This document shows positions 88 through 61,029 of a DNA stretch of 64,000 nucleotides, one piece after another. Positions within the stretch are counted from its first letter, which is position 1; each line of letters starts with the position of its first letter. Source of the stretch: Leucoraja erinacea (Eukaryota). The translations under genes were made by a program, and so were the position numbers. The stretch spans positions 23,560,001 through 23,624,000 of the forward strand of contig NC_073394.1 of the NCBI RefSeq assembly GCF_028641065.1, written 5' to 3'. The notes beneath the pieces are model-generated. The model saw only the letters and a list, made by a program, of their open reading frames with translations, had not been told where the DNA came from and searched no databases.

Positions 88-2494
88 GTCTGATGATCTG
101 CAGTCTCCACAGTCAATTATTGTTAAATTAATTTATCTCCCTCTTGATGTTTAAAATAATGCAATTTTGAATGTTCAGAAGTTTCCTTATTGCAATGATC
201 ACCTGAGCGACGTACCCTGGAAGACAAAGCGATGTAAGTGACAATGTAATAACAAATTTAGGCAACGATAAATGCACCTCGAGTCACTAATAGTGAACTT
301 AATAGCAAAACAGCAATGAATAAAATGACATATGTGAGCACATGTACTACAACAAAGATATCTCAGCAAGCCATTGTTGTATTAAATCTGCTGCTTTAAA
401 ACACTGAATCATAAACACTCAGCATGAAAGGAGGCACAAAATTTATTACAAACAGTTGACCTTACAAAGCAAAAACATAAAAATCAGACATTAGGGAAGT
501 ATCTGTGGGGGGAAAAAAAAGAGTCAATGTTTCAAGGATGGAGGCCCTTCATCGAAACTGTTCAGGTGACAACCCTCCGACCTGAAATATGAGTTTGTTT
601 CAAAAGATTCACAATTTTATTAAAGAAAATTCCACCTTTTTTACATTTTAATTGGGCAACATCTTATCCTGAAGCGTTCCAGATTAGCCCATGAATTGAA
701 ATATATTCTCAGCATTTATCCAACCAAACCCTTCAGAATCCTAAACATTTCAATAAGATAATTTCTCATTCTTCTATCTCCAATGAGTACTGGCCCAACC
801 TGCTTCAACTTTCCTCATAAGATCCCTTCATCTCAGGAAACTTAGTGAACTTTCTCGGAATTGCTTTTAATTTAAACATTTTCCTTTTATAAGGAAACTA
901 AAACTGTGCACTTTTGAAGGCATGGGCTAATTCATATCTTGTACAAATGCTGTAAGCCACTTTTGTACTATGCCAGAGGTCTGCAATTTATTTTTTGTTG
1001 TTGCTTGTTATACTTGTTCGAAAACTGTGCCTCTTGTACAAGAACACGCTCAGCAGCACATAAGCATTGTATAATCACTCTCCATATATTCTATTCCTAA
1101 ACATCACCTATCCGTGCTCTCCAGGGATGCTGCCTGACCTGCTGAGTTACTTCAGTATTTTGCATCTTTCCTCTGCATAGTTCTACATTAACCCAATGCT
1201 TGTGCAGTAGCCTCTATATGTGCCTTGTCAAATGTGATTATGGAAACTGAAATAAATTTATTTACCAGCTGCCTTTATCCACTTTGTTTGTTATATCCAA
1301 TAAATATATCAAATATAATTTCTTAGATAAAACCATGTTTGTTGAGTCTGTTTGATTACATTAATTTTCCAAGTGTTCTGCTATTATTTCTTTGGTAATG
1401 TTTTCTTGTGTTTCCCCAACATGTCAGACTAATTGGTCGAACACATATTGCTCACTGTCTCCTTCCTTTCTTAATTAGGCATGGTGCAATCTGCTTCAAC
1501 CTTTCCAGCTCAAAGATTACAAACAATGCCTTCATTATCTCTGCAGCCATATCCAGGATGCAGGTCACCAGGTTCAAGAGACTTACCGGCCTTTTGTGTC
1601 ATTGGATTCTCAGATCCTTTTCTCAAGAGATGGATTTTTTTTTAAATAGTCCTCTTCCTTTTGCTCTCAGATATTCCACTGTAGATGGAATGCTATAACT
1701 GAAGGCACAAAGAAAATACTTATTCAAAGTCTCTGCTGTTTCCTTTCTTTCCATTAATTCTTAAATCATTTTCTAAAGAACCAACACGTATCTTACCTCC
1801 TCACTTTTTATAGGCTTGTATAAAAGCTTTTAGTATTTTCTTTTCTATTATCTCCTGCTGGGGGTGGATGATCAACACAGTATATAGTACTCTAGCTACA
1901 ACCTAACGAGTACAGAAATTCCAGACTCAACTAGTAAATACTAATAACCCTTCTGTCCGTTTAGCATTTTTGCTTCCTACATATGTTTAACAATCCTACA
2001 CGTTTAAAGGTATGTTTAAAGTGTTACTCCACACATCTCAATTCCTACTAAAATTCTGGGCACTCATTTTGATTCTCTTCCCCTATATCCCTCATTTTTA
2101 ATTGTCTTGAACAAAGGTAATGGATCCCATAACTCACTAACTGCTATTTTGCAAATGAATTTCCAAATTTTTGTGGGCCATGTTTTCAATTCAGGTTGAA
2201 TAATTTTAAAAATATTTGCAAATTGGATTATCAAGGAACCTAGCTTTACTAGATTTGTGAGCATAATATGCAGTTGGATAGGACATAAGTTTGGTCCGAG
2301 GGTACCCACGACTTCAATTCATTGTATGTGATCCTTGTGGAAAGTTAGCTGCAGATGTGTCTCATCTGTAGGTTGTTCCTCTACAAATGCAGCTCTTGAA
2401 AATAAAAAGACAGCAAGGTATCAGGAATCTACATTTTAATGCACAGGAGTGTATTTTGTGTCACTAAAATATACAGATTAACAAGCTACAAAAG

Positions 2495-5161
2495 AAAACA
2501 CGCAACAATTTAATTTTTTTAATTTCACAGTAAACGCACAAGCACAGTACAAAGTCACTGACAAATTGCTTGTCATTAAATTGGTACAACTAAAAAAAAT
2601 ATTTTTTACCATTTTAAAAAAGAAAGCAGAAAACTGTCCCAAGTGAAGAAAGATTGAAATTCTATGTGGAATGCTTTAGTTCTTCCATCATTTCTCCTGC
2701 ATTCCTCTCCTCCCCTCTAGTACTGGCACCAACTGCAGCAGCACCAGGCCAGCAGGTGCCAACCCAGCTGCAAGTCTCAGGATATTCATGGTATTCTCAT
2801 TTCAAACTCTCCAAAATGCAAAGCACGAAAGAAATAAAATCAAAATCTTAATGGTCTAGCCTAATTTAGGGCTTAAAAGAAAAAAACATTCCACACAAAG
2901 CTTGCTGGCAAATTTCAGAAATTCTCACCATTAGTATGTTGCCTATGCAACAAGTCATCAAGGTGTACTTTGAAATAAATCACTTGATTAGTAGCTACGT
3001 TTTCAGCAGTGATTCGTTTGTCTCACTTGCTTTTCCTTCATGGTCTACACTACATTAGTCCTCAGGTAGAAACTTCCTACAAAGCACCTAAACAGCAACT
3101 TGTGTTATCATTCAAGATTACTATCACTGACCTCCATCATGACGCTATTGAAGACATTATTGCACAATATGGTGTTCAGTTTTTTAAGCCTACTTAAAAC
3201 TATTGAAAAGTATGTCACTTTAAAGCTGGATGTGTGCAAACAACAGCTCTTCATAACTGAAAACAATTGGTTTTGGGATTAGAAAAATCCAGCTTGAACC
3301 AAAATGCTGAGGGTTCACCATACTCATTTGTGTTACTAGATGCCATCAATGTGCATTCATTTATTGTACACGAGTGTATCCTGATCTGGTGTGAATGACC
3401 ATTTCTTTTCCAGCGGAGAACGGGCATGACAAAGGCTACAGCAGTCTTCAAGGCTTTAATAACACCAAGTAATTTAGTTAGAAAATTCACAAAAAAGAGT
3501 CCCTGGGATAACCCAACTCTTTAAAAGGCGCAGCCATTGACATTATCAGCTATTGATGAGGGGGGAGCCTATATTATATTGATTGTGAACTAGTGGGGCT
3601 TTCATTTAAGATGATTGTGAGCCAGTTACATTTGTCATTCCAATAGTTCACTAAGGACATCCAGTGGCAAAGAGCAAAATGTATTTCACAAAGATTGCAG
3701 TGGTGTCATAACAATGTTTTATCATTTCTCACCACCCTACTGTGGCAGAACTGTAGCTGGCCCTGCTGCAGTATACCTGACAATGTGCGAATCATAAAGG
3801 CTTAGAAAATTCAATGTCTTCTTACTTCTTGGGAAGGGAAAGATTTGTCTTGCTTACTGCATTATCTGTCACCAAGATTGTTGTCAACACTTGCCCAGTA
3901 ATTCTCAACAACTTATTCTAATCCTTTAAACAAGTTAAACTGTAGGCATTGTCTTTTGTTATTATTTATTATCTATTAAAAATAATAAGTTCAGTAAGAT
4001 TTCCTCTTTTAAAGTAACAGTGATGTGAAGTAACGTTGAGCCCGGCTAAGTGACTGGAGAGGATTTCCAAGAACTAAGCTTGGCACAAAGGAAAACTGCT
4101 CACTAGGAGTGGCTAGAAGTTACTTGAACAATCTGAGATCACTAGCATGCTGTAATTTAGCTTTTAAAAATTCTTCAGGTAACAATAAATTGTAGGGGGT
4201 TCTCTACACATGGTTTTTACTAAAAAAATCTGTATTTTATATTGTAAAAGATACTAAAAAACGTCATTTATTTCTCTTAAATTTACAACCAAAATACTTT
4301 TCCAACTCTACTATCACAAAGAAAAATTAATTCTGTTGGCTGGGTGTGATCCAAGTTGACATCAGGGTGCCTACGGGGTGATCTGGATGATGACAGCACT
4401 GTCTATATACAATTCTTTTTAAAATAGGGTCTTCAACCAGGTCTTGGCACAAAAGGTTTCTTTGTCCTGCACCCCATTCTCTCCAAATACAAAAAAAAAT
4501 TAAAAAAACATTTACTTTTTGACTGGAGCAGGAGCACTGAGGGTCAGTATTCATCTGTGCACTTGCAACATGGAAAATGTTAAAATTCCTGACAGGAACA
4601 TATCATTCTGATTGCTATCGTCAATTAAATCATGAGATACCAGAAGACCTGTTCCAATGTGCCCACAGAAAACAAAACAGATAACATTAATTGTAGGGTT
4701 TTATTCAAGATGATGCATATTACTGAAGACATTATACCCTTAAACGTTTGATCAATGACTCTGAGCAAGTTCAGGCTCAATGCCATCTGTGAGCAATGAA
4801 AATATTGGCATGGTCAATCATGGCAGACTATAAAACATGCAACCTCCTTTTGAAGATGTCCTCCCAGCCAACTGCACCTATAGTAAAAAGATCTGACCAG
4901 CCAGCAACCTTTAAAGAAACTGAGAATGTATAAAATGTTTAATGTAATTGTTGAAAACAGGTTGTTCGACATAATATGTTCCAGAAATCCACTTCCATCT
5001 GGAGAAATTCTTCAAGTTGCAGCTGTGTGTGTACTAATACTTCAGGCACACACCTCTCCCAAGAATTCAGCTCCTTTCTTCACTCGTTTCAAAATGTCTT
5101 CCTGATTTTTTTTTAAATTTTTCTCCTGCTCCAGGATCTGTACAAAGGTGAAAATTCTCCT
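2495..5161 (-). other. cpsf7: Probable terminal 3'UTR exon of cpsf7
   Basis: Donor G|GTACGC lies 1 nt after the stop codon. A long pyrimidine tract plus CTGCAG acceptor ends at 5162. The sequence is repeat-poor and AT-rich. Tandem ATTAAA at 2509-2523 is followed by a GU/U-rich tract. The 3' end is inferred. Confidence 0.6.
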
Positions 5162-8497: not shown

Positions 8498-9198
8498 CTG
8501 CATAACACAAAAGTTGAAAATTGAACCAATTTTTTGAACTCTGCACCAAATCATTCATTAGTAATTCCAAAGTAAAAGCCTGGAGTGATCCAGTGTGTTG
8601 TTTGGCGACATATCCAAAAATCCAATGCAATGTAGTCCTTCTTGAATGTGTTTGATGTAATTCATGATTTGTTACAATTTAAACATTATGGCTCTGGAAT
8701 TATTGGACTAATGTTAGCACTTTTGATGTGTTGATTACTAAAGTGCAAGGCCCAACATCACATTGAAATGGATATAATTAATTAGAATAGAGCGTCCTCA
8801 CTCAATATTCTGCAACTCACAAGGATGATATTATTTGATTCAATTTCTACTACCTGATCACAGTGATAGCATCCTGATCACCATGTTCTCTTCCTGCAGG
8901 GGCAAACACTGCTATACAGTGGGCAGCTTTAATCAATAATAATATTTCAAAATTTCCTTGTTTGTCCTTTCTCATTTCTAGATAGCTTACTTTGTACACA
9001 ATGCATCATTTATTAAAAGTGAGACATCATATTATTTCTGAAAAATGCCCCTGGAAGGATAGGAGCAAAGGGTTAATGTGATATTTATTGAAACAGTTAT
9101 TCTGCACTCCTCTAAGCAAGTATATGTTTTCTGAACTGATGGGCCTTTTAGTGCTGAGAGTTTTGATGCGAAGGTCTGCGTCCTGCAAAATCACTGAC

Positions 9199-9314
9199 CT
9201 GTGCTGGCCCCGGCGACAGCTTTGGAGATGGCGCTACTAGAGATTGCTCGGTTCTTGTTCATCATCTCTTCGAAATCTGCTTCATTTAAAGGAGGACTAC
9301 CGGGATCAGGATCT
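9199..9314 (-). CDS. cpsf7: CPSF7 coding exon 6
   Basis: ttgtag|[38 protein letters not shown]|gtcagt; 116 nt. Confidence 0.96.
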
Positions 9315-10557
9315 CTACAAGGCAAGGACAAAGCACTTCACTATTAACACAGTAATCAAAATAAAGTAACAACATCTCCGATATAATTCTGCACATACTA
9401 TTAATTTAAAATCTTTCTCTATTTATACAACTATTAAACCTCATAGGGGCAAACTGCCATCTAAACATACTCTGAATATAGATGGCAGAGAGATTATCCC
9501 ACACCCAGTGTGTGATGTCATTGCAGTCCAGGCATATGTGCCATTTTACAAGTAAAGTGAAAGAAGAATACCACTTCATTCTAAATCCAAAAGTTGTTTA
9601 TCAATCGTCAGTTCTCTCAATGTCGAAATCACCTTAAAAAATTGAGCTAGGAACAAATATGACCAAATAATTAAATTGAAAGGATGGAGTATAAATACAG
9701 CAAGTCCTGCTGCGATAGAGGAGTGCTTTGGCAAGACCACTGCTAGAGTACTGAATGTAATTTGGGTCTTTAATTCTAAGGAAGGATATCCCTGCCTTGG
9801 AGACGGTGCCTATGCTTCACTTCAGCGACTCCTGGGTTGAAGTGGTTGTCATCACAAATGATTGAGGTCGGTTTATCTATATATATACTGGATTTCAGAA
9901 AAATGGGAGATAATTTCATTGAAGCTACCAAGGTTCTGAGCAACTGAGACACTGTTTCCTCAGGCTGAACAGCCCAGAACTAGGAGCATAGGTTCAGGAT
10001 AAGGAATATGTCATTTAGAGACAAGGTGAAATTTCTGACCTGGCACTTGTTGAGTTGATTTTTTATCACTGAAGAAATCAAGGGATAATTGCTGGACAGT
10101 ACATAGATGAGGTGCAGAATGGTTTGTGCGATGGTCTTGGCTGCAGCCATAATTCTCTGCAATTTCTTCCGGTCTTGGATGGAGCTGTTCCCAAACGAAG
10201 CTGTGAGACATCCTGATAAAATGGGTATTTTATGGCTATTCACTTTATCTATGTCGTTTATGGATCTTAGAAATGTTTATAGGGTCACCTCTCGGCCTTC
10301 TATGCTCCAGGAACAAAAAAAGCCACTCTATCCATCCTCAAACCCTCCAAACATTTTTTTTAAAAGAGGGAATTAAAATCAGTGCACTCAGTTATGTCAT
10401 CAACAACAAAATTTAGTGTTACAACTTTTCCTCAGATGAGCTCTTGGCTGAACATATCTAACATCCAAACAATCCAACTGGCAATGGATGGAAATCAGAA
10501 GCTCCAACAATCAGAAGTCCCACTTACAGTGATGAATCAGCTCAGATCTATGTTCTT

Positions 10558-11682
10558 CCTGAGCCGCGGAACGGGGGGGGGGTGGGTGGGAGGGGGTGCT
10601 GCAGCCCCCCCCCCCCCCCCCCCACTTTTTTGGCTAGACATGTTTCAATGTCTCCGGCTTTGTTCGAGGCGCTGCTGTGCTCTGAGCAACCTAGTCGTGG
10701 GTGCTGGAGAGAGGGATGGAAGCAGACGTAGCAGCGGGGGCAGATGCAGATGCAGGCAGGAGTCGGGGCTGGCGAGATTTGCTGGCGAGTGTTTGCCGGG
10801 CTGGCGATTCTGGAGCAGCCTCAGTACAAGAGTCCCGGCCTGTCGGAAGCGTTGCGCCACTGCCGTGAAAATCTCTGTGCTGCATTCGCCCTGGAGACCG
10901 GCATGGACCAGGCTGCGGCTCGGTGCATCCTGGAGGACAACCAGTGGCTGCTGGAGGTAGGTACCAAACACTGGGTAGAAGCGATGGAAGTTACTGGCCT
11001 TCAAATGGGGGTGGTTGGAGAAAGCATCCTGCTTGCCTGCTAGATTTTCATTCTTACTGTAACTGCAGGAAAAATGTTCCCGATGTTGTGGAGTCCAGAA
11101 CCAGGGGTCACAGTATAAGAATAAGGGGTAGGCAAACATAACCACAGGCAAACATAATTACAAACATAATTTGTATGACTTTGCAACATCAGGAAATGTT
11201 ATGATTATTTCTTGTCCCTTTTTCCAACTCCAAAATAGCACTTGAAATGATAACACATTTAAAGGTTTTTTTTGGTCCAATTTTCTGTACCATGGAAGGC
11301 ACTGTCGTCGATCCGGGGTGGGGGGGGAGATGGGGGATATATCCCCCCACTTTGAGGTGGGGGATGGCCTGTATTATTATCCCCCAGTTTTTGGAGGCCG
11401 AGCAATAACGAATAATAATAATAATCGCCTGCTCCTATCTCTCATGTAGGCCCTACATTATCTTAAAAATACTTCAAACAAAAAAACATTGAAATCATTC
11501 TTTTACAATGCAGTAAAACATAATTTTAATACATCAAATTTCAAAAAGTTCCTACCGTGGGATGAGTGCCCCTCTCCCACCACTCGGTCACTCCACTCCC
11601 TCGCCAGGTACCCCCAAGGCCAGTGATCAGTGATCGCTCAGCCCCCCCCCCCCCCCGACTTTCAAAAACACTGGAGCCCCTG
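10558..11682. mobile_element. Composite non-autonomous DNA element(s) enclosing the TDP2-like fragment
   Basis: Both ends carry CAGCCCCCCC...ACTTT G/C-run motifs, and TGTTCTT occurs at both flanks (10551-10557, 11681-11687). TIRs are degenerate. A second terminus-like G/C-run at about 11300 suggests nesting. Confidence 0.5.
10744..10956 (+). pseudogene. Orphan TDP2 exon-1-like fragment (UBA-like domain)
   Basis: RENLCAAFALETGMDQAAARCILEDNQWLLE aligns without gaps to the TDP2 N-terminal UBA-like segment (RRLLCVEFASVASCDAAVAQCFLAENDWEME, from memory). It ends at GAG|GTAGGT. No further TDP2 exons are seen. Confidence 0.65.
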
Positions 11683-11798
11683 TTCTTGATTCATACCATT
11701 TCAATACATTCAGTCATATATTTAGAAAATTAAATAAAAAGAACATTAGAGGCTCATGAAGGTGAAGTACAGGTGACCTTTCATTACTCTGTTCCTAC

Positions 11799-12333
11799 CT
11801 GCCACGCTTGAATTCCTCTCTGTTGAACTGATTTGGTGGTGGTCTTCCAAAGGCATCAGGTGGTGGTGGAGGGAGCCCTCTGTTATCCACCGGTGGAGGC
11901 AGGCCGGCATTTGGTGGTATAAAGAATGCTGGGTTGATGTGGGGAGCAGGTGGGACGGCACCTGGAGGAGGCACGACTAGATGGGGAGGCATACCGGGTG
12001 GCAATGGTGGTACAATGGATCCAGGAGGGCCAGGTCGACCCATGAACGTGCCATGTAGTGGCATGTGCCCCGGCTGCATGTGAAGTGGTGGCCCGTATCC
12101 AGAGTTGAGAGGAAGTGGCATAGGAGGGGGGAGGAGGCCTGGGGGTGGAAGTCCATGTGGGATATCACCATAAGGAGACCGCCCTGACATGTGGAAGGCA
12201 AGTGGTAACTTATCCCTCCTGGGTGGAGCAACTGCATTTTCAGCAGGTGATGGCCCTCTCCGGGGCAATGGGGAATCGCGGTGGTCGGGAGAATTTATTG
12301 AGTCATGTGACTGGCTTCTCTGCGGATTTTGTC
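11799..12333 (-). CDS. cpsf7: CPSF7 coding exon 5 (proline-rich region)
   Basis: ttttgtag|(R)QNPQRSQSHDS...PPHLVVPPPGAVPPAPHINPAFFIPPN...EFKRG|gtagga; 535 nt; PHxNPAFF motif typical of CPSF6/7. Confidence 0.93.
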
Positions 12334-43264: not shown

Positions 43265-43850
43265 AGCATGCTCCTTCTGAAATTGTACAGGGCCTGGTGA
43301 GACCACAACTATTGTGTGCAGTTTTGGTCTCCCAATTTGAGGAAGGACATCCTTGCTATTGAGGCAGTGCAGCGTAGGTTCACAAGGTTAATCCCCGGGA
43401 TGGCGGGACTGTCATATAAAGAAAGATTGGAAAGACTGGGCTTGTATTCACTGGAATTTAAAAGGACGAGAGGGAATCTTATAGAAACGTATAAAATTAT
43501 AAAAAGACTGGACAAGCTAGATGTAGGAAAAATGTTCCCGATGTTGGGGGAGACCAGAACCATGGGCCATAGTCTAAGACTAATGGGAAGGCCTTTTAAA
43601 ACTGAGATGAGAAAAATACTTTTTCATCCAGAGAGTTGTGAATTTGTGAAATTCTCTGCCACAGAAGGCAGTAGAGGCCAATTCACTGGATGAATTTAAG
43701 TTAAATACTCTAGGGGCTAGCGGAATCAAGGGATATGAGGAAAAGGCAGGCACGGGTTACTGATTGTGGATGATCAGCCATGAACACAATGAATGGCGGT
43801 GCAGGCTCGAAAGGGCCAAATGGCCTCCTCCTGCACCTAGTTTCTATGTT
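43265..43850 (+). mobile_element. CR1 LINE 3' fragment
   Basis: QFWSPNLRKDILAIEAVQRRFTRLIPGMAGLSYKERLERLGLYSLEFKRTRGNLIETYKI plus a CR1-type 3' UTR. Confidence 0.92.
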
Positions 43851-46734
43851 ACTATAATTTGCACAGAACAAATTGATGTTACTTCTTCTTTCAGACAAAA
43901 CCATCTGTTCCATGTTTCCTTGTGTCAAATTAGCCAAGTCTAAGCTTCATATGGAACCTGCTGGTTTGACCATGATCACAGATGCATCCAATTGAAGTTG
44001 TACATTCTGGTTATTGCAAGGAGATAATGACAGGGACTAGGAATTTTGCATATGATAGTTAAGTCATCAACAAAATCTATATTGAAGGACAAATTACCCT
44101 CTAACAAAGAAGTTATTTAAATTTATGAAAGCATGAGGATGCTATTTGACCCCCTGAGTCAATTCCACCATTCATCAGCAAGGTTGACCTCTCATCCAAA
44201 AGCCATTTTCCTGCATTATCTGATTCACTTAAAATACAGAAATCTAACAATTTTTGTTTTTAACTCAATGACAGAGTCTCCCCTGGGGTAGAGAATTCTA
44301 GCTTCCCCATCCTCTGAGTGAAGAAATGTATCTTCATCTCAGTCTTAAATGTCCGATGCCTTATTTTAAAGCTGTAAGCCATGGCTCTAGCCTCCTTTGC
44401 CATAGAAACATGCTCCAGTTCATTGAACCCTGTAACAATTTTGTAAGTTTCAACAAAAGCACCCTTCATTCTTCCAAACTCATACGTCTTCACGAATAGC
44501 ACAGTTTTGCAACAATTAATGTTGGTGTCTCATTCAGCGAACTGGGTTCAATTCTGATATCTGGCACTGTCAGTGTGAAATTTGCACATTCACCCTGCAC
44601 TCTTATAGGTTTCCCCTGGGTCCTCCTACATTCCAAAGACGTGCTGGTTGGTTAGGTTACCCTCAATGTAGTAAGTGGCAGGAAAATCAGAATGATGAAC
44701 AATTGAGAAAAAATGAGGAACAGGAAATCAGAGGGGGAATGGAATTGATGGAATTACTCTGCAAGCTGACATTGACTCAGAGTCAAATGATCCAATTCTA
44801 TACCTTAAGAAAAACGAGATTATTTGAGATTTAAGGAAGCAATATCTGCTAAGAGGACCTAAAGTAAATTAGAAATCAATGTGGGTTTGAGGAATATCCA
44901 GTTCAAGAAAAATTGCTAACTCCAGGTTGATTTCTAATAGGAATGGAAACTTTGAAATTAATCTACCAAAAACCTCAGAAAACCACAATTAAATTACATA
45001 AAATGAAAATACAGTAAAAGGCCAAAACCTCAAAGAAAAACGGAAAATGTCATCGATATTCAGCAGTTCACACGCCATCTGTGGAGGTGCAGGGAAATCC
45101 CAAATACCATCTAATATAAAAATATAATTGAGAATGTTCAATATTAACTACCACTACTTCCTGCACAAACCACAAACATTTATAGCAACCTGTGGTTAGG
45201 GTACAAACACCAAGAATGAAAACATTTTTTAAAAAATGCAATCATACCACCCCAGTTCCGCCTGATATTTAATAAGGAAACACAACACATGGTATTGGAT
45301 CTATAAAAGCAAGATGATCTTCGGTTTAATCCATGTTTAATAGCGAGTTTACTAGTCACAAGTAAGGAGGGTAACATAATAAGATATTCTGGGGAAAGAA
45401 GAAAAATCTGATAGGAGTCCCAATTTTCTGAAAATGGATAGCTGGAGTAACTGAGCAGGTCAGGCAACATCCCTGGAGAACATGGATGGGCGACAAATGA
45501 CTGTTATCTGATCGCTCCAGCGATCCCTTTGCCATTCAAAGTAGACAGTATAAATCAGTAATGGATGTATGACCAACTAATACATACATTACTCACATAT
45601 CTGATTGTAAAAGCACAAATTAATGCCAAATTAAATTTTAAAATATCAAAAATAATTTAGCAAATTCCATTTGATTAATGAGATTACTATTTTAAATTCA
45701 TAGTTATTTTCTAATCTAGTTTATAAAAGCCAAATGTATCAGAAATTTAAGTTGCAGAGTTGCACTTAATGGAAATTAGAATCCCAAATGAGGGAGATAA
45801 TAATAAGAATGGATTCAAAAATGGGGTTAGAGGAAGTTTGTTCACACCAAAAGCACCAGCAAATAGCGAACCTTATTTCTCTGCTGTAAATTCATGGCAA
45901 TTATACTAATATTTATTAAGATTTCGTAAAAATGTTTTATCTAGCATCCTTTTAAGAAAGCACGGTATATATATAAAATAAATTAGAAATTAATCAATAT
46001 TCAAAATAAAAGTTCCTGAATATTCAGCTACAAGTACATTTTCCACCTGCAACTCCATCAGAATCAACCTAGGATAGCAGTATGAAATTGCCTTTACTAA
46101 GAAAAAGTGTAAAATTTGACACTTGGAAAATTGAAGTTTGACACACACAATTATTTTGTAAATGATTTGTACATATTTGCTGTAAAGACCAATTTATGCT
46201 CACAATCTAGAATAGCATGCAAGTAGTGCCACATTATCATATAAGTTATTTTGGTGGTTAAGTGTTCATCCAATGCTGTCCTGGGCAGATAAACGATCCA
46301 ATGGCATTATTTTGAAAAACAGCGAGAGTTATCATGTTTCTAGCCACTATCCATCCCTCATTCAACAACATCAAAAACAGATTAGCTGGTGATTATCTCA
46401 TGCATGCTTGTGGAGCACAAGTTGACTACCTACAGAATTTCATTGTTCTGTTTTAGGATGTATGACAATAAAACATTCTTGACTTCTTCAGTGACTAGAT
46501 TTCAATAAACACTTCACAGACTATAAAATACTTTGGGAAATTCAAAAAGGATATGAAAGGTTCTATGTAAATGCAAGTCGTTCTTTAACTAACAGAGCTT
46601 TCAAGCTCAGGAGAATGCAAGAGAATGGGGTTGAGAGGGAAAGATAGATCAGCTACGATTGAATGGCAGAGTAGACTTGATGGGCCAAATGGCCTAATTA
46701 CACTCCTATAACATTGGAACTTACGATGCCTAAA

Positions 46735-47480
46735 ACGATGGAGACACAAGACAGCAGGTGCTGCAGATGGGAGCAAAAAACAAACCAGAAGAACTTAGCG
46801 GGTCAGGCAGTTTCTGTGGAGGGAAATGGACAGTAAACACTTTAGGTCTTGATGGAAGATTGGATGGAGGATTGCTGGAGGTGAGAGGCTGGGACAAGAG
46901 CTGGCATGCACTATGTGGATGCAGGTGATGATGCGTGGATTGGTGGATGGAATCAGGTTTGAGATCTGTGGAGATAGAGACAGAGGCTGGGAGGTGATTG
47001 GTGGAGTTAACAAGTTGCTGCAGTTGATGGAATATGATGGGAAAGAAAGGTGCAGTGAGTGACCAAATCTGAGAGGTGAGGTGGGAGGAGAGATCGGGGG
47101 GGTGGGGGGTCTGATGGACAAATGGAGTGGATAGAGAAAAAGCCAAGGATCAGGGTGAATGTGGAAAAGAAGGGAATGTGTGGATCGGGTTAACGAAGGA
47201 GAGAGAAAGGGCCTAAGGGCAAGCAAGTTACCTGAAATTAGTGCATTCAAAGTTTGATGAGATTTATGTTATAGACGACCCAGGAGGAACATGAAGTGCT
47301 GTTCCTCTGGTTTGCATTTGGCCTCATCCTGGCAGCGGAGGAGGCCAAGAAAAGACAGGCTGGTATGGGAGTGGGGAGGGGAATCAAAATGGCTAGCGAC
47401 TGGGTATTCCAGGTGCCCATCGCAGACGGAGCGCAGATGCTCAATCTGCGTTTGGTCTCACTGATGAGATGAAGCCTTGT
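46735..47480 (-). mobile_element. Penelope-like element 3' fragment (degraded)
   Basis: ISETKRRL.. GIY-YIG remnant, CT-rich spacer and the shared terminal repeat on the minus strand. Confidence 0.7.
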
Positions 47481-47489
47481 ACATTCTAC

Positions 47490-48330
47490 CTTTCGTGCGG
47501 CGGCGCAACTCACATTGCAGTGGTCCCTACAGCCTGTCTGTCTTTTTTTAATTTTTTTGTCTAGTTAAATGTTGTTGTTAGTGGGTTTTTTTTAATACTG
47601 TTTTTAACTGTGTACATGTGGGGGGGCGGGGGGTGGGGGGAGGGGGAAACTGTTCTTGTCTGGCCTCCGTAGTCGTTGGGGCCTAGCACCGTGGAGTGGC
47701 CTCCAACAGGAACAACCTGGGGGGCTCCAGTCGCGGAGCCTGCGGACTTACCATCGTGGGGCTGGCCAGCTTTGGAGCGTGGGGAGCGGTGGTGGCTCGC
47801 GCTGCTGCGGCCCTACTCCGGAGCTCGGAAGCTCCAACTGCAGACCTGTGGACTTATGACATCGGGAGCTCGCGGGTCCGGCAGGAGACCGCTTTTCAGA
47901 GCTCCCGCAACGCGACTTCTCCCGCCTGTGTCGCGGGGTTGCAACGACCCGGAGCGGGGCCGTACATCGCCTGGCGAGGATTTAATGGCCGCGGAACATT
48001 CCAGCACCCGCTGGGGGCTCCAACTTTGTGACTTTTGGGCCTGGAGCGGGGCCGTACATCGCCCGGCGCGGCCTTAAATGGCCGTGGAACTTACCATCGC
48101 CCGCCTGGGGCTTCGACATCGGGAGAGAAATGGTGCAGGGGAGAGAAAAGACTTTGCCTTCCATCACAGTGAGGAGGAGATTCACTGTGATGGATGTTTG
48201 TGTAAATTGAATTGTTTGTATGTCTTGTAGGAATTGTCTTTGTTTGTATGGCTGTAGAAACCGAGTTTCGTTTGAGCCTCATTGAGGTTCAAACAACATG
48301 GAATAAAATATTGTATATTGTATTGTATTT
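47490..48330 (+). mobile_element. GC-rich non-autonomous retroposon with Rex-type tail
   Basis: Internal repeat GGAGCGGGGCCGTACATCGCC twice; 3' tail CCATCACAGTGAGGAGG...CACTGTGATGGATGT...AATAAA plus (TATTG)n; related copy at about 59980-60330 (-) with a pentamer microsatellite tail. Confidence 0.75.
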
Positions 48331-50210: not shown

Positions 50211-51453
50211 TGTTACAATCCTACTTTCAAGGGATCAGTATACAAAGACACCTCATCAATGAAGTACTACCAACATTCACACTGCCACTCAGCAGCTACT
50301 TTCATGGCACCTACCAGACCGCCCTCAACCTGCCATCTTTCGCCATAATTTTTCCATGTGCAGAAGATCAGATGAGTTGATTTCCCCCATCCAAAAGGTG
50401 GGTGGCATTGTTGAAATGCTGCCATACCATGAGCAGACCTCAAGCTGCCTATCCTATGACAAGCTGGTTGTCAAAGGCTTCTTAGGATTACTTTTAAATC
50501 TTTTGAAAAAAAAAACTTATTCAAACCCATTTATTTGAAAAAAGAAAAAATAGAAGCACATTAAAACACAAATCAAAAAGCTGATGTATAATAAAGTAGA
50601 GCAAAATAATTTTTCACCAGCATCTATCTTTTGCCAGTGTTTTCAACTGGTTCAACATAGAGTTGCCATTTGTACACTTGTCCTTTCTGCAGAGAAGTGT
50701 AGATGCTGGTTTAATTCGTAGACACAAACTAGTCGAGTAACCCAGCGGGACAGGCAGTATTTCTGGAGAAAAGGAATGGGTGACGTTTCGGGTCGAGGCT
50801 CTTCTTCAGACTGATCAATTAAGGATAAGTTTGCTGCACTACAAACGTGCTGCCAGTCACACAAACAAACTTACCATACTCAACCATATTCAACAAATAC
50901 ACCAGCAAGTAATTTAGATCTTAATTGAGAAGATCTGAACAATTAAAACGTCTTGTTCCTTTTAAACAGTGTTTTTTTTTTGCCAGCACATTATGCTCAC
51001 TTTCAGATTACTGTCATGATTCCCTTATGAAATTGCTTCTTACACGTGCATGCATCATTACTCCACGTCGACCCGCGGCACATTGGAACTCTAAACTTTA
51101 ACTCGTGGATGTTTTCTTTATGTGAAATTATTGACAATAAAATCCAAGGCCAATTCCCATTTTCCGGATTTTTTCAATATAAAAGTGAATTCCTGCGACT
51201 TATTTCACCGTGTATGGGGCTCGCTTCCTCATGGGTCTCGAGACTCGGCTCCAGGCTGGGGTTTTTTTTTTGCCGCTAACGCGGAGCCCGGGAGAGGAAT
51301 CTTCCCCCGGCTCTCGAAATCGAGCCAAGGCCTGGACCGCCAATCTCCACCCCTACCCACTCTCTCCGAGAAATCTAGTAATTATTCTCTCCACTAATAT
51401 TAAACCACGCACCACTTTTATTCCCCCGGTCCGCAGAGCTCGTGTTCACCCAC

Positions 51454-51507
51454 CTGATTAAACTCTTCGTCCGCGTAAATGTCGATTAAGTCGGCTCCCT
51501 CGGCCAT
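51454..51507 (-). CDS. cpsf7: CPSF7 (CFIm59) coding exon 1
   Basis: Translates MAEGADLIDIYADEEFNQ, matching the CPSF7 N-terminus (MSEGVDLIDIYADEEFNQ). Ends CAG|GTGGGT, phase 0. Head-to-head with sdhaf2 as in human. Confidence 0.93.
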
Positions 51508-51844
51508 TCCCCCAGCCGCGCCGCGCCGCGCGAACACGGACAATTAAACGCCCGGACGCCTTTCCGGGACGGACCAAACTGCGCCGGAGCCGCGGACCCA
51601 GTGGTGTGTGACACCGGGGATACTTCCGCCCCGCTTTTGACTCGGTGAATGAAAGATACTGGCGGTGAATGATCTGTCACCGTGTCGCGGGCCCATCCCG
51701 ATCCTCACCATCAGATCCCGGGTGATCGGGGCCGGTCCAGCTGGTCCTCAGATCATCAAACCCTTCCTCCTTGGCCCCTCCAGCACAACGATTTCCGTGC
51801 GTCGCCCCGGGTTGTTAGGCTGCGGGATTACAAGAAGGTGAAGG

Positions 51845-54734: not shown

Positions 54735-55965
54735 TGTGCGGCCCTACACTATGCCCTGACCCACCTGGACTACAACAACTCCTACATCAGGCTGCTGTTC
54801 ATTGATTTCAGCTCTGCCTTTAACACCGTCATCCCAGCCAGCTTGATCACCAAACTCAGTGGACTTGGCATCTCCACCTCCCTCTGCAACTGGACATTGG
54901 ACTTCCTCACTAACAGACCACAGTCTGTTAGGGTCAATAACCTCACCTCCTCCACTATAACACTGAACACCGGAGTGCCACAGGGCTGTGTGCTCAGCCC
55001 TCTCCTCTACTCCCTCTTCACCCACGACTGCATCCCAAAGTACGGATCCAACGCCATTATTAAGTTTGCTGACGATACCACGGTAGTAGGACTGATCAGC
55101 GACAACGATGAGTCAGCCTACAGGGATGAGATCCAGCACCTGACCACCTGGTGTGCCGACAATAACCTCATCCTCAACTCCAAAAAGACGAAGGAGATCA
55201 TTGTCGACTTCAGGCAGACCAGAGGAGGCAGTCATACCCCCATCCATATCAACGGGACTGAGGTGGAGCGCGTCTCCAGCTATAAATTCCTCGGAGTGCA
55301 TATCTCGGAGGACTTGTCCTGGTCCCTCAACACCTCCAAGCTGATCAAAAAGGCACAGCAGCGCCTTTACTTCCTTAGGAGGCTCAAGAAAGCCCACCTG
55401 TCCCCCCAGATCCTGACCAACTTTTACCGCTGTACCATAGAGAGTATCCTGACCACCTGCTTCATGGTATGGTACAGCAGCTGCACTGCTGCGGACAGGA
55501 AAGCACTACAACGGGGGGGTGAAAACCGCGCAGCACATCATCGGTGCCCCGCTCCCTGCCATGGATGCCCTCCACCGAAAACGGTGTCTGAGACGGGCTG
55601 GGAAGATCATCAAAGACCCCTCACACCCCAACCATGGACTGTTTGCCCTCCTCCCATCAGGGAGGCGGTACAGGAGCCTCAGGTCACGTACCAGCAGGAT
55701 GAGGAAAAGCTTCTATAACAACACAATCACACTGCTGAACTCGGAGTCCCGACGATAGACTTCTCTGGTCCCTCCGTCCCCCTGTGTTTAATCATTCTGT
55801 ATTTCCTGATTATTCTGTATCTTCTCTCTTTCTATTTTTTTTTCTTGTTTTTTCTCTTTATGTACAACTACTACGGACTGACGCAAAACTGCATTTCGTT
55901 GTACTGATACTTGTATTTTGTGCGATGACATTAAAGTTGAATTGAATTGAATTGAATTGAATTGA
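54735..55965 (+). mobile_element. Rex1/Babar-clade LINE, 5'-truncated, young
   Basis: RT motifs [27 protein letters not shown] and KFADD; one frameshift in the G-run at about 55513; (TTGAA)n tail. Confidence 0.92.
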
Positions 55966-56226: not shown

Positions 56227-56444
56227 GTTTGGTACTTGAACAGAGAAAGGGTTTCAAGGGCCATATTTGGCGCTTACTCTCTCCGATCATATCGTGGTGA
56301 TACCTCTGATGATATGACAGATATCAAACAGATACCACTGCCTCCATGGGAAGAGCGAACCAATGAACCACTGGACACGAAGCGAGCACGTCTGCTGTAT
56401 GAGAGCCGTAAACGTGGAATGTTAGAGAATTGCATCTTGCTGAG
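56227..56444 (+). CDS. sdhaf2: SDHAF2 coding exon 2
   Basis: ttttctgtag|[25 protein letters not shown]...[37 protein letters not shown]|gtaaat; contains the Sdh5/SdhE RGxxE motif. Confidence 0.96.
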
Positions 56445-58083
56445 GTAAATAATATCTTACTGAACTTGAAGATGGATTCACACTTTTCGCTTACAATTTG
56501 TTACGGTATGCTTCTTTTCCGGGTGCCACTCTGTCTTTAATAGATTAATTGAAAGATACTGCATGGAAATAGGGCCTTCGGCCTACTATGCCGACCTGTT
56601 CACACTAGTTCTATGTTATCCCACTTTCGTATCCAGTCCCAACACTCCAAGGACAATTTACAATTTAATTGAGAAGTCAATTAAAGGAATTTAAAGATGA
56701 GTTAACACCTATTATACTCCGTACATTAAACTGGGTTTAAAAAAAGGCACAAACACCACTGAGTTGGGGGGGGGGGGGGGCAATTATCTCTGCTATTCCA
56801 AAAGAAGGTAAAGATAAAGTGGATGATGTATACATGATGTAAGTGGATGATGTATACATGTAGCATTATACCTGAAACCCGTTTTATGGAAATGTGTTTG
56901 CAGTGGAATGCCAATAAAAGAGTATATTTGAAAAAAAAGGTCAATTACTACAAATCTGCAAGTCTTTTAGATGTGGGAGGAAAACGGATCACCCGGAGTA
57001 AACCCACGTGTGGGAGAATGTGTACACTCCATGCATGCAGCATCCAAGGTTAGGATTGAACCAAGATCTCTGCACTGTGAGGCAACAACTTTACCGGCTG
57101 CACCACTGTGCCATCCTGTTAGGCATTACAGTAAAACTCTGATTATGTGGCACGTTCAGAACTTTGGTGGAACTGGATTAGCAGGTTTTCTTGAACTAGT
57201 GGATGTCATTCAGTTTAATACTTAAATTATCTTTTAATTCATTTTTAGATGTTTCACAGTATGATAGTTTTCTAGTGTATCAGTTGTGTGGCATGGGAAG
57301 GCTAGAACTGTGGCCTCAGTGTGAAAGGAAAGCATGGGACGATATGCTAGTGAGTGGAAAGGGGGTGCAGCAAACAATATTTGGTGAGCCAGACGGGAAC
57401 CATTGGAATTTCTCGGGAGCCATATAATGGATAATCAGAGTGCTACTGAATTATACGTCTTGTTCTGACCAGATAATTATTTGAGGGGCAGTTTAATTTT
57501 ATATTTCATCTCGTCTGCAAATGTTATAGTGGTTCTGCTGCCTTAAGTATTTCTACCCCACTAACAAAGAGCAGACTTGTAATACAAATTTAGAACAGGC
57601 AGCATCACTGTGGAGCAGAGTAATTCCTGGGTTAATTCATCATGTGAATTAGATCACTACTGAAATAGAGCTAATCTGTACCATTGAAGCATTGATGTCA
57701 TTAAGATGTATAATTCTACAGAAATTGGTATGAACAATTTAAAAATACGTTTACCCAAGAATTCATAACAATTCAAAATAAATTAATGCTCAACATAAAA
57801 TAGTTTTGCGTTACCTTTAACAAAGATTAATGAAATTAAAAGTGATTCCAAGCAATCCAAGGAAGGGGAGGGAGTTTGGGTAGTTACCTAATATTCATAC
57901 AATTTTTATGCCTGTTACTTTTTATAAAGAAAGGCGTCAGTCTGATTAGCATTAGAAAAAATGGCATATTTCAAAAATGTGCACTATTCAGTTGCTAATA
58001 ATCTTGTCCAGGGTTAAAATATTGTGTCACAGCCCAACACCAGCGGTTAATTTGTAGAATGAAATTATATATTTCAATTTCAG

Positions 58084-58193
58084 TTTCTTTGCAAAAAAGT
58101 ATCTGAATGAAATGACTGAGAAGCAGCTGAGTTTGTACGATAAACTGATCAATCAACCAACCAACGACTGGGACATTTACTACTGGATGACAG
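58084..58193 (+). CDS. sdhaf2: SDHAF2 coding exon 3
   Basis: tttcag|(S)[36 protein letters not shown]|gtttgt; 110 nt. Confidence 0.96.
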
Positions 58194-59052
58194 GTTTGTA
58201 TAGTTACAACTGTTCACTGGCATCACTGAGCTTCCATCTTGATTCAAAGTTAATTGTGGAGTGACTTTATTCCTTTAACAATTAATTTTCCATGTAAACC
58301 TGCAAATATCATGGGAGTTCTATGAAAAGTCAGGTCTATGATCGACTAACAATTAATACAGATAGGGTCAGTGCGGCTAACCATTGTTACATGGACCTAA
58401 ATGCTATCCTAAACAACAGCCAAGTTGAGGTGGACAAGACAGGGAGATAATCACTTCACTAACCCTGGACTGTTTTTTTGCTGGAATGGATGGACCCAGG
58501 ATCAAGTGGACCTCCCTCAATCTCTCCATTTATCTGAAGTCAGAGAAATGAGGAGGGCTGATGATTTTGGGTGGGGGAATGACTTTTGATGAATAGATCA
58601 TTGGTGTCACTGGTTATGTGAATGCTGGAGCCCTAAAGGAAGAGGTATCACAGATGGGGCATTAACAAATAGACCAGACTGTAATTAATTATCCCCAGTG
58701 ATGGTTAAATACCCATGCAAAATGAGCATAGATAAGGACCATTAATGTTGAGCCAAGAAACTGTACCAAACAATATCTTCCATCACTAAATAACAAGCAA
58801 CAGTAAATTATTCAGACTGATGGGAGTTGTATCCTGAAAGTCAGAGTATTCAAAAAATGGAGTAATTATATCTGAACCATGATTTTCATCATCCAAGCTA
58901 ATTTTCTTTCCAGAATATGGCTAATGGGAAATAACTCTGCTTTTTGCGATTTGAAGAGGGTATTGGGCTTGAATTGTATTCATACTGAAATTTGGTCATT
59001 TCATGGTTTAGTTGATTTTTATGTCCTTTTTTTCCCATTTTCATCCAAACAG

Positions 59053-59183
59053 AAACAAAGCCTACTCCTCCTGAATTTGATACTGAGATAATGACTTTGC
59101 TGAAGGAATTTACCAAAAATCGTAACATGGAGCATAGAGTCGGGCAGCCGGCACTCGACTACCTCTTTGAAGACAAAAAGTAA
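59053..59183 (+). CDS. sdhaf2: SDHAF2 coding exon 4
   Basis: aaacag|(E)TKPTPPEFDTEIMTLLKEFTKNRNMEHRVGQPALDYLFEDKK-TAA; total CDS 477 nt; candidate AATAAA near 59498. Confidence 0.95.
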
Positions 59184-59759: not shown

Positions 59760-61021
59760 TGTAGAGGATGGCGAGGATTATAAGGATTTGTTCATGATAC
59801 ATGAGGCCACGTTTTTCAATAGAACTAGATAATTGCAAGAGATTGAGGAAAATAAAGTACTTATCATGAAAGTCTACACTGTCTTCTGGCATTGGGCAGT
59901 CTTTTATTAAGTTTAGAATAACAGTATCGCTAATGGAACATTATTTAACGCTTTAAAATGCTCCCATCCCTACAAGGTTGAATTGAATTGAATTGAATTG
60001 AATTTCCTTTATTGTCATTCAGACCTTTCAGTCTGAACGAAATTTCGTGCCTGCAGTCATACATACAATAATAGACAACAGAACAGACAGTAAACACAAA
60101 TTAACATCCACCACAGTGAGTCCACCAAGCACCTCCTCACTGTGATGGAGGCAAAAATCGTAGGGCTGCAGTCTCTTCCCTCCTCTTCTCCCTCTGCGCT
60201 GAGGCGATACCCCACCGGGCGATGGTAAATCAGTCCCGCGGCTCACCGAGCTCCACGAACGGGCCGGTTCAAACACTGCGGCCCGGGGTGGTCGAAGCTG
60301 CCGCCCTCCAGACCAGCGGACGCAGCTGTTGACGACATGATAACAAATAAAGAAAAATATGACACGGTTCCTGTTATGCAACTTAACAACGATGGCGATG
60401 TAATTTATCAGAACACTAACTTCCAGAGTTTGCATGGGCATAGTTTCACGACTTCTGACTGACGAGTCTCCATCTCCCGAGTTTGCATGGGCGGAAATCC
60501 TCTTTGTCCATCTCGTTAGCTTAATGTACTCTTGACTCTGGGTGGGTATGATGTTACCTAAGAAATTCCTTGACGAAAACAAGTTAGCAGCTTATTCTCC
60601 CACTAAGGGGAGGTTGTGACGGCATTCTAGGTCACGACCCATGACCCGTACTATTGCCACGCCACGCCTTCTGGCCGGACTCCAAGCTGACTAGTTTCAC
60701 ACTCGTGGACCCCGGGTCGTTTGTCCCTGCAGCCGGCGGGGGGGGGGGGACGGTCGGGGTGCCAGTGCAGTGCGGTCAGTGACTCTGGGTGGGCGGAGGG
60801 ATCATACTGTCCACAACTCTTGCTTCAGCTGACGGGGACGTTGCCGGGTTTTCGTCCCCGGGTGTCCATTGCCCGGAGCCGCGGCCCCGCTCCACCCGGC
60901 CCCATGTGTGGGCGCTGCCGACTAACGGTCCTTACTCGTGTATGCGGGAGGCTGCCATGTCCTCCAGAAGGATTGAGCTGCTCAGTGCATCACGCCCTTT
61001 GACCCAATGACCTTACGTACA
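59760..61021 (-). mobile_element. Putative 3' LTR of the ERV, interrupted by a retroposon at about 59980-60330
   Basis: PPT-like AGCGGGGG(T) then TGTA at 61021; ends ...CTACA at 59760; AATAAA near 59905; 14-bp direct repeats inside. Boundaries uncertain. Confidence 0.5.
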
Positions 61022-61029
61022 ACCCCCGC

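Follow-up and report, generated by a model that had tools for sequence, protein, structure and literature searches.

The window, a stretch of 64,000 nucleotides of Leucoraja erinacea (contig NC_073394.1, positions 23,560,001 to 23,624,000), contains on its minus strand a gene which we take to be cpsf7 rather than cpsf6, from its N-terminus and from synteny. The exons downstream of the intron considered here match the Pfam family RSLD_CPSF6 (E 8.6e-24 and 6.5e-9). The gene starts at about 51507 (ATG), and its head-to-head neighbour resembles Sdh5, though with E 9.8e-5 the match misses the curated cut-off; a CpG island at 51200-51800 holds the minus-strand start exon, and SDHAF2-like exons lie on the plus strand at 56227-59183. 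Repeats are also seen elsewhere in the window. These are a GC-rich sequence which contains direct repeats, bears a tail of GTATT-like units and looks like a separate interspersed element (47480-48320), a little-decayed LINE reverse-transcriptase 3' region with a GAATT microsatellite tail at its end (54740-55960) and, by eye, a degenerate pol region resembling an LTR element or endogenous retrovirus on the minus strand downstream of the SDHAF2-like gene (about 61000-64000). The cpsf7 intron carries an insert of 1118 bp with CTG on both borders, which is antisense to the host gene and ends 116 nt from the intron donor. Its parts are summarized in Table 1.

Table 1. Parts of the insert and its host intron, in positions of the window.
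Feature	Position	Strand	Basis
CTG, left copy of a candidate 3-bp target-site duplication, preceded by C	10559..10561	+	sequence (putative)
Left end: G-run / GCTGCAGC / C-run palindrome, GC 0.77	10562..10635	+	repeated; hairpin z -1.97
Likely tdp2 5' UTR, homologous to the P0003 copy only from about 10693	10636..10715	+	tblastn
Coding part of TDP2 exon 1: N-terminal extension and initial two thirds of the UBA-like domain, broken by a frameshift	10716..10956	+	structure, protein matches
GT donor and putative start of tdp2 intron 1	10957..11063	+	kept in other copies, absent from spliced TDP2
LINE scrap, ORF2 C-terminal, sense-oriented	11064..11133	+	84.5% identity with window 43522-43592 over 71 nt
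AT-rich internal segment, GC 0.31, lower-copy	11134..11299		depth 44-66x
Internal block resembling a second G-run/C-run end; paralogous contigs connect it with the parts on either side	11300..11430	+	X1 record 5; X7 records 21-23; X12 records 13-14
High-copy right part, C-run, then terminus starting GGG on the minus strand	11431..11679	+	2289-4732x per bin
CTG, right copy of the candidate target-site duplication	11680..11682	+	sequence
Host cpsf7 intron, GT..AG, 2485 nt	11798..9314	-	between exons 11799-12333 and 9198-9313

The peptide encoded by the fragment is read in frame +1 up to 10956 and is followed by GT at 10957. Its only PDB match below E 1 is the human TDP2 UBA structure 6q00 (E 0.0064), and in the longer-protein search, which 2 of 23 candidates passed, it matched TDP2 of Leucoraja (E 4e-12, 65%). 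Its closest named relatives are skate proteins. The Pfam scores for UBA_4 (E 0.011) and TAP_C (E 0.02) are both under the cut-off and undiscriminating by themselves. Judged by sequence similarity, the best match is the N-terminal UBA-like domain of TDP2 and not the TAP-C domain of NXF1 or DCN1. The assignment to TDP2 in a preliminary description of this DNA is thus borne out by the structural and the skate matches; between the UBA-like and the TAP-C profile Pfam is undecided, and it is the PDB search which gives TDP2.

Up to the GT at 10957, two spliced TDP2 proteins share 30 and 31 of 37 amino acids with the window; beyond it the agreement is 3 of 28. Because the similarity to spliced TDP2 breaks off at this GT donor, the end of the exon is placed at 10956/10957. 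The N-terminal extension of Amblyraja TDP2 (P0004) is also found in the window, where frame +3 opens with an ATG at 10716. Through a deletion at about 10812 the second Met is lost and the reading passes from frame +3 to +1, and therefore the TDP2 copy in the window is broken. More indels are found near 10755-10790 and at about 10846. The exon as first outlined had the correct end, but its true start lies upstream at the ATG in the other frame, and the frameshift had been overlooked. With a GC content of 0.63 and an observed/expected CpG ratio of 0.69 (whole window 0.42) the exon part from 10716 to 10957 is CpG-island-like, though only about 240 nt long.

Three database proteins (P0001, P0003 and P0008) run on past this donor into the intron sequence seen in the window and share a common stop position. 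Behind the donor the window is identical to these genomic copies at 20-23 of 28 amino acids, which supports the view that the donor and the start of the intron were kept, since similarity to spliced TDP2 ends at 10957 and the other genomic copies continue. When the three proteins and the window are compared, 20-28 of 28 residues are kept in the intron frame and 25-33 of 37 in the exon. As the intron frame is kept about as well as the exon, there is no sign of an exon-specific constraint. In the aligned copies the intron start appears to decay as fast as the exon. P0001 may be the true tdp2 locus or a copy. Upstream of about 10693 the sequence of P0003 is unlike that of the window and looks AT-rich. 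In all three, be they copies or true loci, the frame stays open for 110-141 amino acids; it begins with the ATG, spans the UBA part and takes in 28 residues coded by the intron. An AlphaFold model of the open frame of P0001 (5 rows) has a mean pLDDT of 50, the intron-coded tail prolonging a helix to residue 96 with low confidence.

Four of the 24 listed sequencing runs were examined, namely the DNA runs X1, X7 and X12 from three skate-like organisms (A, D and E, respectively) and the RNA run X22 from organism D; none of the runs listed as carrying this DNA is recorded as RNA. Depth is given as summed word depth in relation to the single-copy depth of the flanks (25, 41 and 25 for X1, X7 and X12), which is not a strict copy number and is inflated by overlapping short contigs. 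The TDP2 fragment reaches about 300 to 12,000 times the single-copy value per bin in all three DNA runs. For X1, X7 and X12 the values are 304, 370 and 1482 in bin 10654-10764, then 464, 450 and 2997, and finally 4092, 2902 and 11818 in the next two bins. The left-end bin (10543-10653) lies at 81, 137 and 951, and behind the fragment 44-66 (11209-11319), 74-237 (11320-11430) and 2289-4732 (11431-11652) were found. At 10754-10756 the depth goes down to single copy in all three runs. Variant-carrying contigs number 37-74 per run at each of the positions 10869, 10881, 10968, 10984 and 10994, which is a firmer floor on the number of copies than depth; our reading of the inflated depth is hundreds to low thousands of copies in the genome. 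Together with the three additional proteins reading into the intron, these data establish the multicopy nature that had been suspected for the fragment. In organism E the depth over 10654-11051 is, in relation to single copy, about 2-7 times that in organism A, which hints at further lineage-specific amplification; GC bias explains only a part of it.

Depth over the TDP2 part is 10-30 times that over the middle of the insert, and most copies therefore differ from the window copy behind the intron. The mismatch with the window is 10.3-17.6% for the five listed TDP2 pieces, in comparison to 0.1-3.1% for the flanks (one difference in 1079 for X1, about 3% for X7 and X12). As the divergence of the pieces is several times that of the species, the relatives of the window copy are older than the split of organisms A, D and E. 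Summed word depth is blind to whether copies are dispersed or in tandem and would also fit a tdp2 5' region multiplied in tandem or by segmental duplication, the intronic copy then being a stray. We regard this as very improbable, given that the copies are 10-18% diverged, that the contigs with P0003 and P0008 are 4274 and 4646 nt long, and that the window copy is itself dispersed with element-like borders.

G-run/C-run ends are located at 10562-10635 and at about 11640-11679, and a third end-like block at about 11300-11400. The preliminary description had spoken of transposon-like G/C-run ends; they are present at both borders, but compared as inverted repeats the outer ends agree in only 3 of 12 and 4 of 20 letters. 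Pairing among the three blocks amounts to 1-3 of 12. The left end begins with A, the GGG start is seen at the right end alone, and the hairpin of the left end was equalled in stability by 6 of 200 shuffled sequences. The CTG at both borders provides a candidate for the 3-bp duplication of DNA-transposon type, and the letter of organism D at 11683 is G, which yields a CCWGG-type site. Two other duplications were considered and rejected. An 8-bp hAT-type duplication is not found, as the 8-mers around a CAG..CTG-style reading do not match, and a 7-nt direct repeat (10551-10557/11681-11687) is broken by the letter of organism D at 11683 and leaves ends that are not inverted at their start.

Joints and loose ends of contigs from the four runs were taken from the best-supported rows of a longer list. 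The junctions at 11299/11300 and 11430 recur in paralogous contigs. Among the joints listed, the intron is connected to the LINE scrap in three contigs of X7 and one of X12, and a single X7 joint (11088-11589) ties the LINE scrap to the right part, while none of the listed paralogous contigs spans the junction of the left end with the TDP2 part or the one at 11133/11134. If TDP2-bearing contigs are supposed to reach the left C-run, bin arithmetic fits in organisms A (2135 versus 2013) and D (5781 versus 5557). It misfits in organism E, where 32189 is predicted and 23388 found; here the palindrome alone gives 22337 and accounts for the left-end bin, so that co-amplification of this bin with the TDP2 part was dropped for E.

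The right end is joined to the flank in organism D (record 24) and the left flank to the left end in organism E (record 10; 27 differences, 35 gaps). In E, the 49 letters just before the right CTG at 11680 do not align, and in D the left contig ends at 10460 with 32 unaligned letters; one of these could go back to partial excision, deletion or a nested insertion. Another explanation takes the stretch from 10562 to 11679 for a nest of adjacent or deleted insertions from different families, in which a DNA-level TDP2-bearing family, perhaps of another superfamily, stands beside a separate miniature element at 11300-11679. The unpaired end-like blocks, the very uneven depth along the insert and the clean GGG start at only one end would agree with such a nest. 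It nevertheless seems improbable to us, because both outer borders carry the identical CTG, paralogous contigs share the internal junctions, and relatives show the left end (E) and the right end (D) at orthologous positions.

The LINE scrap at 11064-11133 stops about 260 nt before the LINE 3' end, and the continuation of the LINE is visible as loose ends. Its local relative in the window is a 5'-truncated CR1-type LINE with a 3' end at 43280-43855. Database matches for the scrap are unnamed clusters only. What had been called a CR1 scrap is a LINE scrap by its similarity and is presumably of CR1 type. Neither a poly(A) nor a LINE tail was found when both borders were read for them, ARAGORN predicted no tRNA gene in the insert, and the 31 Rfam matches at E up to 1 include none at its gathering score.

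A further explanation takes the main family for a retroposon. Transcripts from the tdp2 promoter, running from exon 1 through intron 1 into a sense CR1 3' fragment, would have been copied by a tail-recognising CR1 reverse transcriptase; the window copy would have lost the tail and then have been carried along by a Harbinger-type element, as the subfamily of about 50-fold depth. The fragment starts 23-80 nt before the ATG, where transcription would be expected to start, the intron start is directly followed by a LINE 3' piece in sense orientation, and the TDP2 part is far more numerous than the middle part. The same explanation is favoured by the AT-rich-looking, different sequence of P0003 upstream of about 10693. 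CR1-group LINEs make up 22-34% of elasmobranch genomes (PMC13343379), and sharks and rays are known to have SINEs with a borrowed LINE tail (PMC3747384). Depth also climbs from 5' to 3' as 5' truncation among copies would predict (304, 464 and 4092 times in X1), but this gradient is confounded, since it could stem from the indels of the window copy itself, as indicated by the single-copy depth at 10754-10756, and in X1 from GC bias (0.6). Against retroposition, the scrap of the window copy breaks off some 260 nt before the LINE 3' end which stringent recognition requires, and two of the three runs fit TDP2-bearing contigs that extend to the G/C-run left end. At its 3' border the window copy has no intact LINE 3' end with tail, and neither ARAGORN nor Rfam at gathering score revealed a head derived from tRNA, 5S or 7SL. 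Overall we consider a retroposon origin of the main family unlikely, though it is the strongest of the alternatives. Somewhat more doubtful still is the view of the tdp2 locus as a retroposon master gene, by which its promoter, exon 1 and intron start headed a CR1-tailed element in thousands of skate sites, one copy being re-captured by a Harbinger-type DNA element. If that were true, the dispersed copies, read on both strands, could act back on a DNA-repair gene through antisense or small RNA.

We think it rather probable that the many-copy, frameshifted TDP2 exon 1 with its intron start was captured at the DNA level and is a neutral passenger of a non-autonomous cut-and-paste transposon of Harbinger type (PHIS, NuwaI-like). 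The CTG at both borders and the GGG of the right terminus agree with the definition of NuwaI (PMC4482050), and the lack of a tRNA gene, Rfam family, poly(A) or LINE tail as well as the recurring internal junctions are also counted in its favour. A matching CTG would be expected about half the time even without joint mobility if both ends stem from CWG-inserting families. Terminal inverted repeats of 12-61 bp starting with GGG, as in NuwaI, were not found at the insert ends, which share only 3 of 12 letters and start with A on the left. The rise in depth towards the sense LINE scrap and the upstream departure of P0003, both of which also fit retroposition, count against the transposon as well. 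So do the failure of the bin arithmetic in X12, the unaligned letters of organism E and the contig stop of organism D. Since the ends agree in so few letters, the insert likely works like a NuwaI miniature element but is not filed as a member. The preliminary description had argued for DNA-level transduplication and against retrocopying from the retained donor. The candidate CTG duplication and the kept intron start are in line with transduplication; however, the retained intron 1 is also compatible with retroposition, as a prematurely terminated, unspliced CR1-tailed transcript would keep it, and the ends are not real terminal inverted repeats.

For the favoured Harbinger-type passenger the following course can be proposed. 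Template switching or gap repair would have placed an ancestral tdp2 5' piece, comprising the UTR, exon 1 and the start of intron 1 and probably already containing the CR1 scrap, between Harbinger-type ends. The unit would then have been moved to hundreds or low thousands of CWG sites by a transposase acting in trans. The window copy would represent a rarer composite subfamily, with about 50-fold depth in its middle part, whose antisense insertion into the cpsf7 intron may predate the split of organisms A, D and E and may have decayed since. It would be spliced out along with the intron, without a UBA protein being made from its own ATG.

In the poly(A) RNA of organism D (6% of X22) reads of the family cover exon and intron positions with the strands about equal (8 and 11 at 10869, 15 and 21 at 10968, 13 and 17 at 10994), in a library which is apparently stranded because other bins are strand-biased. 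Such coverage is in keeping with copies being read through as parts of host transcripts, and it shows that antisense TDP2-like RNA is present to some extent. The reads are not identical to the window and are not attributable to its copy. The zero depth of X22 on exon 11799-12333 is possibly a result of filtering and uninformative on splicing of the host intron. Of the functions considered in the preliminary description, that of a ready-made UBA-like first exon fails for the window copy with its frameshift and its orientation antisense to the host gene; as to that of a source of antisense RNA, low-level antisense RNA from the family is seen in X22. The repeat is probably neutral.

A link between TDP2 and HUH/rolling-circle transposases had also been suggested. 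Helitrons are recognized by a 5' TC, a 3' CTRR with a hairpin and insertion between A and T without target-site duplication. Reading the two strands of the borders by eye revealed no such termini, and each border has the CTG. DDE transposases leave no phosphotyrosyl adduct. The transposases of Harbinger elements are DDE enzymes (PMC4482050), and the suggested link therefore finds no support here.

Further searches gave no relatives of the fragment. A metagenome scan with alignment A2 yielded one locus among 147 candidates, which was rejected, as it lies on a bacterial-looking contig and has no DNA similarity. None of 30 candidates from a viral contig scan and none of 261 candidates in a protein search with the antisense frame matched. 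The two end motifs were absent from the viral contigs, and the 22 matches there of a 17-nt exon-end motif, all only 17-23 nt long, were taken as chance. The one match in a search of representatives with frame +2 is a tandem-repeat protein and was rejected.

The insert can be compared with several known systems. In SVA_F1, exon 1 of MAST2 is reportedly joined to a retroposon by splicing, which makes it a model for the retroposon explanation; in the TDP2 copy, by contrast, the intron is kept. The CR1-tailed SINEs HE1 and HER1 of sharks and rays have tRNA heads (PMC3747384), which were not found in the TDP2 insert. The NuwaI group of PHIS transposons, which includes Harbinger3_DR, is described by CWG duplications and by GGG-starting termini with terminal inverted repeats of 12-61 bp (PMC4482050), and the target of Harbinger3_DR has a CCWGG core (PMC3016246). 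The insert shares the CTG (CWG) borders, the GGG terminus on one side and, in organism D, the CCWGG core, but lacks such repeats, a transposase and a Myb ORF. Table S5 of PMC4482050 contains no family from cartilaginous fish.

Animal Pack-TIRs are likewise pieces of host genes between non-autonomous DNA-transposon ends which were moved repeatedly. Tan et al. (2021) described 370 of them, mostly hAT and TcMariner, of which only four are multicopy and the two detailed ones occupy three loci each (PMC8277862); examples are Pack-hAT-N8_XT with a piece of the CAPSL 5' UTR and Ssk-FB4. The TDP2 cargo differs by its hundreds- to thousands-fold depth. Shark, Harbinger and TDP2 are absent from the main text of that paper, the supplements of which could list such cases. 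A search for a TDP2-derived repeat in the literature, with most subscription papers and the repeat databases outside its reach, found none. The high-copy TDP2 gene-fragment repeat is real and seemingly undescribed, as a variant of known transduplication. It has a practical side in skates, where false TDP2 or UBA gene calls and mis-mapped reads of tdp2 exon 1 are to be expected.

The closest counterpart in cargo and scale is HelibatN3, a bat Helitron which carries the promoter, 5' UTR, first exon and part of the first intron of NUBPL in about a thousand copies (PMC4224331). The same study reports that elements with gene 5' ends amplify most. Both elements are alike in the layout of their cargo (5' UTR, exon 1 and start of intron 1) and in scale, whereas the skate insert has no Helitron termini, shows a candidate 3-bp CWG-type duplication and carries TDP2 in a cartilaginous fish. 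Multicopy Pack-TIRs of animals are rare and of few copies (PMC8277862), and among the papers considered, thousand-fold amplification of a first exon is described for the bat Helitrons alone (PMC4224331). If confirmed at scale, the TDP2 repeat would mean that in a vertebrate a first exon can also be amplified by a cut-and-paste family or by a CR1-tailed chimera, and it would serve as a natural test of whether gene 5' ends rich in CpG, once captured, promote their own spread and whether they disturb the parent gene via antisense or small RNA.
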